From Thomasclavelia spiroformis DSM 1552 (lineage in GTDB: Bacteria > Bacillota_I > Bacilli_A > Erysipelotrichales > Coprobacillaceae): 24,000 nt of DNA. Made by a program: the position numbers and the translations under genes. The DNA lies in NCBI RefSeq assembly GCF_025149465.1, contig NZ_CP102275.1, forward strand, positions 2,095,596 through 2,119,595. The letters run 5' to 3'. A model generated the notes under the pieces. That model did no database searches. It had not been told where the DNA came from and saw only the letters and a list, made by a program, of their open reading frames with translations. Shown here piece after piece: positions 2,529-21,320 of this stretch (its first letter is position 1; each line of letters begins with the position of its first letter).

Positions 2529-2589
2529 AACTTTTGTAATTATTTTTTCGAAAACTATAGATAAAATTTTTGTAAATTTATCATACAAT
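2529..2589 (-). promoter_or_regulatory. Orphan copy of the GH92 promoter/operator module (sites A1 2532-2554, A2 2569-2589)
   Basis: 2529-2569 matches 7350-7390 at 38 of 41 positions, with the first 26 nt identical (aacttttgtaattattttttcgaaaa). Contains GTAA-N7-TTCG and TTTGTAA-N7/8-TACAA inverted repeats. No intact gene follows it on the minus strand. Confidence 0.5.
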
Positions 2590-2604
2590 AATTTTATATC
2601 AATA

Positions 2605-2643
2605 AACTAAAAGGTTACTGCTATCAAAATATATCAGTAACCT
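2605..2643 (-). terminator. Rho-independent terminator of the 1515-aa GH92 gene
   Basis: Minus strand reads AGGTTACTG-(14 nt loop)-CAGTAACCT followed by TTTTAGTTTATT. It lies about 55 nt downstream of the stop at 2698. Confidence 0.55.
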
Positions 2644-2697
2644 AAATATTTTATTAATTATAAGAGGAAAGAAAGCAATTTTAATTATTATCTAATA

Positions 2698-5600
2698 TTA
2701 ATCTTTTCTTTTTAATGCTGCATATCCAGCTACACTTAATAATGCTATTGTTGCAAACATTCCTGCTAAGCTTTCATCTCCTGTTTTTACACTTGTAGTA
2801 TCACCATTATTTACTGGTGTACTTACTGTGTTATCAGTTGTTATTGTTTGTAATCCTGCAAGAGCTTTGGCTAGAACATCTTTTGCATTATCTACTTCAA
2901 CTTGCGAAGCATTTGGATTATCAAATACTGCTTTTGCTTCATCTAATGCTTTTGTTAATCCATCAAATGTTGCTTTTGTATAGTTCGCCCCGTTTAATCC
3001 ATTTGCTTGATTAATTAATTCTTCTAATAAGCTCTTATCTGGAATTAATCTTAAGTTCAAGAATGCTGTTACTAATTCACTGTATGCATTGTTTACTTCT
3101 TCTTGCATTGCATTTAAATCTTCGTATACAGCATTAGCTTCATTTAATTCTGTTTCAAATGCTGTCCATGTAGCTTGAATATATTTATCAGCTTCTAATC
3201 CACTAACTTTATCGATAAATGCTTTTAATGCTGTTTTATCACCTTGTTTAAAGTCTAACATATGCATAACGTTAGCAAGCCTATCAAATACATTATTTAC
3301 TTCAACTTGTGAAGCACTAGTATTATTATATACTGCATTAGCTTCATCTCTTGCAGCAATAAATTCATCAGCTACTGCTGGTACGACATTAGCTAAATCT
3401 TCATCAGTGATTGCATTAGCTAAATCGATAGCGATACCTAATGCTGTTTTATCAGCTAACACATTTCCTAATAAGTGGAATTCATATACTCTTGCATTTG
3501 CAGAATCTGTATCACTTAATTTAGGAATTACCAAACGGAATTGACTACCCATAATTGGTTCATCAAGTGTAACTTTTACTTCATTTTCTTCAATATCTTT
3601 TAAAGTATATACATCTTTCCATTCACCATTTTCTTTAACTTGTAAAGAGAATTCTTTTGTAAGATATGATGAGTTTTCTGTTGCTGCACCAATAAAGATT
3701 AAACCATTAACTGCATACTTCTTATCAAAATCCATTTCCATCCAGAATTTTCCATCATCTGCATATTGATAACGACAGCTCCATTTTGTGTTCAAATCAG
3801 CATCAATTGCTTTTTCTGGTCCTTCATTTTCATTAGCTTGTCCATTAGCAGATACTTTAAGTGATGGATCATTCATAATACTTCCTCTAAATGTATCTAC
3901 AACTAAACCTTCAATTGCTTCATTAAGTTTATTAGAAGCAGCTTCTAGCTCTTCATCACTAGCATCTTCTTTATCTATAATTGATTTAGCCTCGTTAATT
4001 GCTTCATTTAAATTATCTACACTTGCTGATGTATAAATTGATGTATCAATTGCTTCAGCTTTTTCTACAAGTGATTCAAGATGTGCTTTCCATCCATCCC
4101 AGATAATTAATGTTTCAACATATGAATCACCTTGACTAAATACAAATTCAAGTTTAGCACTTGAATCCACACCATCTTTTACAAGCGATGTTCCAAAGAC
4201 AGTAATTTGATTATTATTTTCTCTTGAGAATGCATAATCTTCGTTTTCTACTAATTCTTTGCCATTAAATAATACTTTTTCTAATGTATTTCTATTATAT
4301 TTAATATTAGCAACATAATCAGATGGATTAGAAATTTCAATTATTTGAGAATAATCCTCAAATAATTCTAATTCTCTTACTGCAATTTTACCCCATGTAA
4401 AGTTTGCTTCTTTAATTCTAATTCTTAATCCTATTATATCTTTAAGTGCTTTATTAAATTTAATATTTGCACTACAACGATTATCGCCACCGCTTTCGTC
4501 TTTCCATTCAGGTGTCCAATCTTCTACAATAACTTTCCATTGATCTGATGATGAATCTTTTATTTCAATATCCATTTTTGTAGGATTTTGGTTACCTCTA
4601 TAATTTGACCAAATTTTAAATGATGTTACTCTACTTAATGGGTTATCCCATTCCATTGTCAAATAATATGGTGTATTAGACAAATCTTCATTTGAATGAA
4701 CGTTCGCACTAACATAACCAGTGTCATAGTTTCCATCAATCAATGAAACTGATGGAACATCAATATCACCACCAGGTTGTCCATAATCAGTTGTACTTAC
4801 TTTTGCTTTAGATGCATAGTTTTTACCTGTTACTCTAGTCACTTCACTATTTCCAAAGAATGGTGGTTCAGAATCATCTTCAGGACTTTGAGCATCTTCG
4901 TCATATTGGATTGCTTCTTTATGATAATCACTTGCCCAACTAGAAGGTGTATCATTCATGTTGAATTCTACATTTCCACCAGATGTAATTTGATTATATG
5001 TAATAACTGGAATATTTAATGCTTCGCCATTTAATGTTGCATCTTGAATATAACAGTTAGCATTTGTTTCATTATCATCATTATTATTTGCAGTGATAAC
5101 AAATTGAGTATCTGTTTTTGGATTATTGATTGTAACTTTATCAAATATTGGACTTCCTATCATGTATTCTCCAGATGCTGGATTAACTGGATAAAATCCC
5201 ATTGCTGAAAATACATACCAAGCAGACATTTGTCCACAGTCATCATTTCCTAATTGTCCACTAGTATCATCAAAATAACTTTCTAATAAAGTTTGTCTTG
5301 CATATTTTTGTGTTAAATCAGGACGACCACTAAAGTCAAACATATAAGCATAATGATGGCATGGTTCATTTTGTTGTTCAATCCATTTGTCGCCACCTAA
5401 TCCACCAAATGCTTTTTCAAGTTCAGTGTTATAGAAATCTGCACCTTGATGTTCAGCCATGTATTCTAATAAACCTTGTGGATCATGTGGTGCAAACCAA
5501 GTATATTTTCTTCTATCACCTTCAGTAAATTGTTCTCCACTTGTTGACCAATTCCCATCTACGTCACGACCCATTGCATATCCAGTTTCAGGATTAATTG

Positions 5601-21225: not shown

Positions 21226-21263
21226 TTTCTTTTTCTTTCTCCTCCTTATAATTTTATATCTTA

Positions 21264-21291
21264 ATTATATCATTCGTTTTATTTATTTTAA
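21264..21291 (-). promoter_or_regulatory. Predicted sigma-A promoter of GH92 paralog 3
   Basis: Minus strand reads TTAAAA (21291-21286), 16 nt spacer, TATAAT (21269-21264). Confidence 0.4.
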
Positions 21292-21300
21292 GTTATAATA

Positions 21301-21320
21301 TTTGTAATTTTTTTTACAAA
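21301..21320. promoter_or_regulatory. Inverted-repeat operator candidate D
   Basis: TTTGTAA-tttttt-TTACAAA is a perfect 7+7 palindrome, 9 nt upstream of the predicted -35. A lone half-site TTTGTAC is at 21341-21347. Confidence 0.55.

Follow-up and report, generated by a model that had tools for sequence, protein, structure and literature searches.

A recurrent TTTGTAA-N6/7-TTACAAA palindrome upstream of GH92 and sugar phosphotransferase genes in Thomasclavelia spiroformis, a candidate operator of a locus-encoded PRD activator

The closest described systems are two activators of Bacillus subtilis. MtlR acts at a 42-bp operator located 7 bp from the -35 element of both PmtlA and PmtlR; it autoinduces and is a proposed class II activator (PMC3217849). 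ManR is the PRD activator of a fructose-family, mannose-specific phosphotransferase system (PTS), with sites upstream of the -35 of manPA and manR (PMC4495994). Here, we analysed a 24,000-nt stretch of ~31% GC from Thomasclavelia spiroformis DSM 1552 (contig NZ_CP102275.1, positions 2,095,596 to 2,119,595; hereafter the window), in which a TTTGTAA-N6/7-TTACAAA palindrome recurs around a gene for a PRD-containing activator. The palindrome precedes this regulator gene, which is followed by a split fructose-family PTS, as well as three genes of the GH92 family (GH92_0, GH92_1 and GH92_2), and one copy lies between the regulator and a mannose-family PTS operon (man-PTS). We propose, with a probability that we put at about 0.8, that these palindromes are operators for the locus-encoded activator, the predicted domain order of which is HTH_Mga-Mga-PRD-EIIB-EIIA.

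Palindromic sites and predicted promoters

The sites of the window are the following.

Site C1, 10859-10878, no strand assigned: TTTGTAA-ttttat-TTACAAA, perfect, universally conserved at its place between the man-PTS operon and the regulator gene.
Site C2, 10907-10926, forward: TTTGTAA-attaaa-TTACGAA, one mismatch, proximal site of the regulator/fructose-PTS promoter.
Site D, 21301-21320, reverse: TTTGTAA-tttttt-TTACAAA, perfect, at the GH92_2 promoter.
Site B1, 7354-7374, reverse: proximal GH92_1 site, reading TTTCGAA-aaaataa-TTACAAA on the gene strand.
Site B2, 7390-7410, reverse: distal, weaker site, CGTAA-N7-TTACG, starting 36 bp upstream of B1.
Site A1, 2533-2553, reverse: proximal GH92_0 site, paralogue of B1 with the identical TTTGTAA-ttatttt-TTCGAAA.
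Site A2, 2569-2589, reverse: distal GH92_0 site, TTTGTAA-atttatc-ATACAAT, starting 36 bp upstream of A1.

The repeated palindrome is real. From shuffles of the whole window one would expect 0.03 copies of its perfect core, TTGTAA-N6-TTACAA; there are two. When the intergenic null was a first-order Markov model trained on 2017 nt of 80%-AT intergenic DNA, intergenic sites with 0, at most 1 and at most 2 mismatches numbered 2, 3 and 6 against 0.0007, 0.024 and 0.36 expected, and none of the 3000 replicas reached the observed counts. Sites with at most 2 mismatches and a 6-7 nt spacer are also concentrated between genes (6 intergenic, 1 coding). An earlier note on this DNA, made from the letters alone, had listed these palindromes, held them to exceed chance and seen none in the MATE/MarR region or in the 14933-15645 intergenic region. 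All of this stands: the palindromes are present at, or within 1-2 nt of, the places given there, C1 and D are perfect, the excess holds against both the shuffle and the Markov null, and the two regions contain only matches with 3 mismatches.

C1, C2 and D have a 6-nt spacer, and A1 and B1 have one of 6 or 7 nt according to how they are aligned; a 7-nt spacer is clear in several orthologous sites. The 91-nt blocks that contain A1 and B1 are 79% identical, so these paralogous copies count as one event and not as two independent ones. Site D is enclosed in a 36-bp near-perfect palindrome (21293-21328) that reads TTATAA-TA-TTTGTAA-N6-TTACAAA-AT-TTATAA. Its outer hexamers mirror the conserved linker on the promoter side, though the far side carries no divergent promoter. 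As a general trait, symmetric outer hexamers had to be dropped: they are found in D and partly in C1 and C2, and the distal side is not conserved in the orthologous loci L050 and L042 or in the Lachnospiraceae (see below).

Several other candidates were rejected. A distal partner of D is represented by one poor candidate (21341-21361), ~40 bp away where the spacing elsewhere is 36-37 bp. A two-mismatch site inside the regulator gene (12093-12112) is explained by conserved codons, its I-T-N being part of a conserved peptide. Read as RNA hairpins or terminators, C1, C2 and D have folding energies of -6 to -9 kcal/mol and B1 of -2.4 kcal/mol (z = -0.7); a role in RNA is unlikely, since the sites lie upstream of the predicted promoters, outside the transcripts, and B1 has no stable fold. 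Rfam returned no family match anywhere in the window. Finally, the catabolite-responsive element of CcpA (WTGNAANCGNWNNCW, central CG) is missing from the promoters, and its one match in the window, against 0.23 expected, lies inside the MATE gene.

The promoters that these sites precede are predictions from a consensus scan, with the exception of promoter A: the -35 there is weaker than the threshold of the scan allows, and the assignment comes from homology to B.

Promoter A (GH92_0), reverse: -35 TAGTAA 2523-2518, spacer 17, -10 TATAAT 2500-2495, linker AGTTCTAAA.
Promoter B (GH92_1), reverse: -35 TTGTTA 7344-7339, spacer 17, -10 TATACT 7321-7316, linker AGTTGAAAA.
Promoter C2 (regulator), forward: -35 TTTTCA 10936-10941, spacer 16, -10 TATAAT 10958-10963, linker ATTTCTAAC.
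Promoter D (GH92_2), reverse: -35 TTAAAA 21291-21286, spacer 16, TG-extended -10 TATAAT 21269-21264, linker TATTATAAC.
Best man-PTS promoter, reverse: -35 TTGAAA 10828-10823, spacer 17, -10 TATACT 10805-10800.

At A, B, C2 and D, the TTAC(A/G)AA half-site stands exactly 9 nt from a weak predicted -35, and the four linkers share the pattern AnTTnTAAn. The earlier note had claimed a fixed position upstream of the -35 in three promoters; this is borne out, with one promoter more. If transcription is assumed to start 7 nt after the -10, site centres fall at about -53.5 to -55 in these predicted promoters, in agreement with the activator-like centre at about -53 to -55 that had been claimed. The predicted starts would lie near 2488, 7309, 10970 and 21257, and near 10793 for the man-PTS, which would put C1 at about -75.5 of the latter.

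Such a location overlaps the usual zone of UP elements. In fact, an A/T-rich UP element or curved DNA at about -40 to -65 could contact the C-terminal domain of the RNA polymerase alpha subunit directly, without any specific factor; the spacer of the sites is an A/T run, and the B. subtilis targets of ManR and MtlR depend on the same alpha domain (PMC4495994). We nevertheless consider this explanation highly improbable. By per-column scores, the most informative positions of the motif are the G and C of TTGTAA/TTACAA, in a background of 80% AT; dyad symmetry is not a property of UP elements; and the element is absent from the promoter of a housekeeping man-PTS operon described below. A specific operator is the reading that we retain.

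Conservation with the regulator and its PTS cassette

Homologues of the regulator were collected by protein search, graded from 99% to about 35% identity, and a genome scan combined with contig look-ups gave more than 60 loci (labelled L001 and so on). The phylogenetic footprinting that the earlier note had proposed could thus be run, and the same composite arrangement recurs: the palindrome, a 9-nt linker and a weak -35 are found upstream of regulator orthologues or of their fructose-PTS cassette in more than 25 loci. These span Erysipelotrichales (Thomasclavelia, Longibaculum and other Erysipelotrichaceae), Clostridium and Lachnospiraceae, and differ in gene order and in GC content.

In L050, the regulator is 60% identical, the synteny is the same and two GH92 genes are present; TTTGTAA-N6/7-TTACAAA, the 9-nt linker and the -35 occur at all four promoters, including that of the man-PTS (TTGTCA-18-TATACT), and three of the four share the linker AGTTGTAAG. 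In L063 (regulator 81% identical), the GH92_1 orthologue has moved downstream of the PTS and keeps a perfect site with a 9-nt gap to its -35, TTGTTA. In L042 (Erysipelotrichaceae MTC7, 42%), the regulator, the fructose-PTS operon, a GH92 gene and a GH92_2-like gene all have sites in front of them; the 9-nt gap is seen at the promoters shown, namely those of the regulator, the GH92 gene and the GH92_2-like gene, and at the proximal site of the fructose-PTS operon. Site D is conserved in L001 and L047. The two-site spacing of 36-37 bp seen at A and B recurs in L062, at the L042 PTS promoter and in Clostridium loci (L062, L042, L009 and L004/L005 being the loci concerned).

The promoter equivalent to that of the man-PTS also stands 9 nt from its site in L050, L002, L003 and L051. 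At window positions 10829-10858, a degenerate GGGTCA in T. spiroformis occupies the place, 9 nt from the site, that the man-PTS -35 (TTGTCA or TTGAAA) takes in these four loci. The new-looking TTGAAA-17-TATACT found 21 bp further looks like promoter turnover by two helical turns.

In Clostridium sartagoforme, C. nigeriense and C. paraputrificum (41-45% identity), TG(A/T)AA-N6/7-TTACAAA-ACyTCTAaC-TTATAT lies upstream of a regulator-EIIA-EIIC-EIIB cassette, followed in C. paraputrificum by a GH92 gene after the PTS. In Hungatella, Enterocloster and other Lachnospiraceae (38-41% identity; loci of 41-57% AT), the gene order becomes EIIA-EIIC-EIIB-regulator and the site moves with the first gene. 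Here the site T(G/T)TGTAA-N7-TT(G/T)CAAA-TnTTCTATC-TGTTCA-N17-TATGAT is nearly identical in about 15 genomes, Hungatella and Enterocloster having the near-identical form TGTGTAA-N7-TTGCAAA-tnTTCTATC-TGTTCA-N17-TATGAT. Among Bacillus homologues, the nearest reach only 39-40% identity; of the palindrome, the TTTGTAA half is present in their upstream regions and the TTACAAA half is not. As a separate observation, a group II intron reverse transcriptase/maturase gene sits between PTS EIIB and the regulator in Hungatella hathewayi DSM 13479 (L024, 8488-9879).

When we aligned the man-PTS/regulator intergenic region of six Erysipelotrichales lineages, the sole long invariant run was TTTTGTAATTTT, one variable position, then TTTACAAA. 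This block covers C1, and the intergenic DNA around it is otherwise unalignable. These comparisons also bear on the idea that the palindromes are passive copies of a duplicated promoter fragment, carried along with the GH92 genes and bound by no dedicated protein. The A and B regions are indeed clear paralogues, with A1 equal to B1. C1, C2 and D, however, share with A and B the palindrome and the linker and not the flanks; the palindrome is the one block that stays invariant between lineages; Lachnospiraceae keep it in loci of 41-57% AT, a background in which a 14-mer this rich in AT would hardly arise by chance; and GH92_0, GH92_1 and GH92_2 are mutually 26-29% identical over the regions compared, so their duplication is ancient. 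Passive copying thus seems to us scarcely credible, and a bound operator is kept as the explanation.

Negative controls point in the same direction. The composite site is absent from the paralogous PRD regulators of 24-31% identity (L035, L039 and L046), and L037 and L041 have low-scoring matches only, away from any regulator promoter. The ~0.8 Mb of fetched loci contain ~35 sites with at most one mismatch, ~32 of which are at the promoters described here. T. spiroformis itself offers a further control, as the man-PTS coding block (7459-10695) is 99.9% identical to a second man-PTS operon of the species (L059) and 99.5% identical in L060 (8144-11380 in both). The similarity of the two operons ends 17 nt upstream of the start codon, and the upstream region of the second operon (L059/L060) has no site. 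This suggests a recent duplication, or gene conversion, of the man-PTS coding part only. The neighbours of the second copy are a BglG antiterminator, a glucose-type PTS and, on the upstream side, an rve transposase, and the man-PTS IID protein sequence of the window is found identical in many assemblies.

Which protein would bind? The earlier note had considered a Crp/Fnr-family factor encoded elsewhere "equally possible", and a Rex-like regulator may be added to this class: an unlinked global regulator would then bind sites of the type TGTGA-N6-TCACA (Crp/Fnr) or TTGTnAA-N4-TTnACAA (Rex) and report cyclic AMP-like, redox or other global signals. TGTAA-N6-TTACA does have the 5-6-5 geometry of Crp sites, and C1 and D fit the degenerate Rex pattern TTGTNAANNNNTTNACAA with one mismatch, 3 matches being seen against 0.45 expected. 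The 7-nt spacer of orthologous sites (the L050 GH92 promoters, L042, Lachnospiraceae) breaks both fixed geometries; for the 18-bp Rex operator, which has 10 nt between the outer TTGT and ACAA, it gives 11 nt. A further point is that the sites precede weak -35 elements, Rex being known as a repressor. An identical man-PTS operon lacks the site elsewhere in the genome, and the window encodes neither Crp/Fnr nor Rex, an unlinked gene being possible. The motif accompanies the PRD regulator cassette in three orders and in varied contexts. The parity given to an unlinked Crp/Fnr factor does not survive these comparisons: we regard a global regulator of either kind as unlikely, and the locus-encoded activator is strongly favoured from the sequence comparisons.

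The candidate activator and its proposed action

The regulator has the domains expected of such a factor. Pfam places Mga (PF05043) at residues 90-158 (E = 3e-9) and HTH_11 at 97-134, with HTH_Mga at 11-54 just below its cut-off; PRD (PF00874) is found at 305-392 (E = 3e-13), PTS_IIB (PF02302) at 404-460 and PTS_EIIA_2 (PF00359) at 536-673. At its threshold, Pfam gave no first PRD, which would lie at about residues 190-290. EIIA(Mtl)-type chains in the PDB match the EIIA-like domain. H326, H384, C404 and H592 are invariant in 14 orthologues, and the most conserved peptides, RYDIDRIN and VSRSTIKND, are located in the two helix-turn-helix (HTH) domains, which matches the conservation of the half-sites. 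Genes for fructose-family EIIA, EIIC and EIIB adjoin the regulator, both in the window and at all orthologous loci for which genes were listed. On its HTH, PRD and EIIB/EIIA-like domains and this PTS linkage, the protein is classed by sequence as a PRD activator of the MtlR/ManR/LicR type. It is 94% identical to the regulator of a T. spiroformis metagenome-assembled genome, and the JGI annotation of one homologue (P0066) reads 'activator of the mannose operon'.

A motif that tracks the PRD regulator and the fructose-PTS cassette through three orders and several gene orders, and that stands at the regulator's own promoter, has the usual signature of a local, autoregulated factor. Weak -35 elements combined with good -10 elements fit activator dependence. 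The suggestion of an activator-type operator with the PRD regulator as its candidate protein is therefore supported by its footprint with regulator orthologues and cassettes, as a prediction from sequence.

To explain these observations we propose that a dimer (or higher oligomer) of the regulator would bind T(T/G)TGTAA-N6/7-TT(A/G)C(A/G)AA, with the proximal half-site ending 9 nt before a weak -35 and the centre at about -54. The conservation of the 9-nt linker itself (AnTTCTAAC-like) implies that the contact surface would reach the -35. At some promoters, a weaker distal site 36-37 bp further upstream would be occupied as well. Binding would recruit sigma-A RNA polymerase to promoters with a good -10 and a poor -35, and thereby switch on the regulator's own operon with the split fructose-family PTS, the three presumed surface GH92 alpha-mannosidase-family enzymes and, probably, the mannose-family PTS. 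Activity would presumably be set by PTS phosphorylation: HPr would activate through the PRD histidines, and the cognate EIIA/EIIB would inactivate by phosphorylating the EIIB-like cysteine and the EIIA-like histidine when substrate is absent. The fructose-family PTS, which is probably co-transcribed with the regulator, is its presumed sensor transporter. In this scheme, binding by the regulator, activation, the phosphorylation logic and the inducing sugar are what we infer.

A number of points weigh against this proposal. The orthologous loci were retrieved via conserved HTH peptides, which biases the sample to the same recognition helices. The promoter scan yields about as many matches in shuffled sequence, so the weight rests on conservation across lineages. 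In this species C1 is 30 nt (9 + 21), not 9 nt, from the best man-PTS promoter; with that promoter apparently shifted by 21 bp, control of the man-PTS here is uncertain. A rigid dimeric HTH site would not usually have a spacer of 6 nt in some copies and 7 nt in others. With one mismatch, the degenerate Rex-type pattern fits C1 and D too, and the scan covered the window and the fetched loci, so extra sites at unrelated genes are possible.

A more elaborate arrangement can be envisioned, which as a whole we hold only tentatively and think rather doubtful. Each site would be a composite of three to four TTnTAA-type hexamers and not a simple dimer site: a distal TTGTAA, then TTACAA on the proximal side, then a linker TTCTAA that abuts the -35, plus the outer TTATAA mirror in D. 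Within each monomer, one HTH domain would read one hexamer and the other HTH domain its neighbour, and a second such site would lie 36-37 bp upstream. Jointly with this, the fructose-family PTS would act as sensor of a regulon conserved across three orders, into which Erysipelotrichales and some Clostridium would have recruited surface GH92 mannosidases. If true, the system would be the Gram-positive equivalent, wired through a PTS, of a Bacteroides locus for mannan/N-glycan utilisation.

The operator and its regulon are apparently undescribed, although the regulator is of a well-known type; a literature search on the motif, or on regulation of GH92 genes by PRD regulators, found nothing relevant. 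General understanding of PRD activators is left unchanged. What the locus provides is an operator sequence, with its promoter architecture, that can be tested in a subgroup of PRD activators widespread among gut Firmicutes (Thomasclavelia, Longibaculum, Clostridium, Hungatella and Enterocloster) and so far uncharacterised. It ties this subgroup to two PTS systems for uptake and to extracellular enzymes of the GH92 mannosidase family. The link predicts how these bacteria may sense and harvest alpha-mannosides, for example host N-glycans or yeast mannan, and the motif could serve to define the regulon genome-wide and to design inducible promoters in poorly tractable anaerobes.

Surrounding genes and comparison with known systems

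The genes of the window, in order, are the following.

GH92_0, 1-726, reverse: N-terminal part of the third GH92 gene, ATG at 726, left end off the window.
IS110-family insertion sequence, 742-2395, forward: transposase 1037-2221, CT at 740-741 and 2396-2397; it interrupts the regulon and is not a member of it.
GH92_1, 2698-7245, reverse: secreted alpha-mannosidase-family protein of 1515 aa with a signal-peptide-like N-terminus, FIVAR and F5/8-type-C domains.
Mannose-family PTS operon, 7481-10678, reverse: IIAB, IIC, IID and DUF956/ManO, from domain matches.
PRD-containing activator, 10992-13019, forward: Pfam HTH_Mga / Mga / PRD / EIIB-like / EIIA-like.
Split fructose-family PTS, 13022-14932, forward: EIIA 13022-13471, EIIC 13530-14603, EIIB 14618-14932 (Pfam, NCBIfam).
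GH92_2, 15646-21225, reverse: 1859 aa, GH92 with CBM6 and FIVAR domains.
MATE/MarR gene pair, beyond GH92_2 and last in the gene order.

The boundaries of the IS110 element (742-2395, 1654 bp) come from comparison with the IS-free strains L052 and L054, which read ...gagaaaggaaaaatgagattATG across the GH92_0 start; the same CT flanks the element on each side, and the insertion is absent from L052 and L054-L058. Its insertion point, 14 nt before the GH92_0 start codon, leaves the gene disconnected from the A1/A2 promoter. Because the element separates GH92_0 from its upstream DNA, A1 and A2 are taken as the native GH92_0 promoter sites. The earlier note had further described a site split by the element (867-880 plus 2286-2291); both pieces are internal to the IS110 element, and there is no split operator. 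The transposase is classed by NCBIfam as an 'RNA-guided transposase', and ~295 nt of non-coding DNA precede it, where a guide (bridge) RNA would be expected and Rfam gives no match. In IS-free strains, a short upstream open reading frame (ORF; MDNILINDFNFEKGKMRL, then a stop) ends in an ATGA overlap with the GH92_0 start (window 2397-2435 plus 727-741; L054 ~16404-16460).

The C-terminus of GH92_1 (window 2698-2790) reads ...VKTGDESLAGMFATIALLSVAGYAALKRKD and resembles a cell-wall sorting signal, with an xxKTG-type motif, a hydrophobic stretch and a basic tail. With a signal peptide at the N-terminus as well, the sequence points to an enzyme anchored at the cell surface. The GH92_1 leader contains a mini-ORF (MTLIIVNHIINSGR, then a stop) after a second GGAGGTG. 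The GH92_1 orthologue is broken into 2-3 ORFs in L052, L056 and L058 (11594-16142) and in L057 (11594-16139), where GH92_0 is also split (16455 onward). These split ORFs suggest frameshifts or decay of mannosidase genes in some lineages; GH92_1 is intact in the window. Between the fructose-PTS EIIB gene and GH92_2, the 14933-15645 intergenic region (~81% AT) has ~500 bp (about 15090-15600) in which no feature is recognisable between two convergent terminators, and the corresponding gap carries an IS256-type (Transposase_mut) element in L055 (2418-3627) and L056 (2567-3814).

How does this locus compare with what is known? Crp/Fnr sites are alike in being 5-6-5 inverted repeats at a position upstream of the -35 that is compatible with activation. 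They are unlike the present sites in their fixed 6-bp spacer (22-bp site) where it is 6 or 7 nt here, in their half-site, the fourth base of which is G and not A (the core here being TGTAA/TTACA or TTGCA), and in that the present motif accompanies a PRD regulator and not a Crp/Fnr gene.

ManR is closer: its sites precede the -35 of the transporter operon and of its own gene, and the theme of mannose uptake is shared. The B. subtilis transporter, however, is a fused EIIBCA (PMC4495994), whereas EIIA, EIIC and EIIB are separate genes here, and the B. subtilis regulon as listed (manPA-yjdF and manR) is without secreted glycosidases (PMC4495994).

The likeness to MtlR of B. subtilis or Geobacillus stearothermophilus is one of domain order: two HTH domains at the N-terminus, then PRD, then a Cys domain of EIIB(Gat)-like type and a His domain of EIIA(Mtl)-like type. 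The strongest database matches of the window regulator are confined to the EIIA-like domain and stay under family cut-offs. In both systems the operator stands directly upstream of a sigma-A -35 (7 bp in B. subtilis, 9 nt in the predicted promoters here), the same operator is present at the regulator's own promoter, in keeping with autoregulation, and a palindromic core has conserved flanks towards the -35 (PMC3217849). The cores themselves differ, TTGTCACAGTCATGTGCCAA at PmtlA (as read from primer sequences, PMC3217849) against TTTGTAA-N6/7-TTACAAA here, and so do the regulons: a mannitol PTS and dehydrogenase for MtlR, GH92 glycosidases and two PTS operons for the proposed regulon of T. spiroformis.

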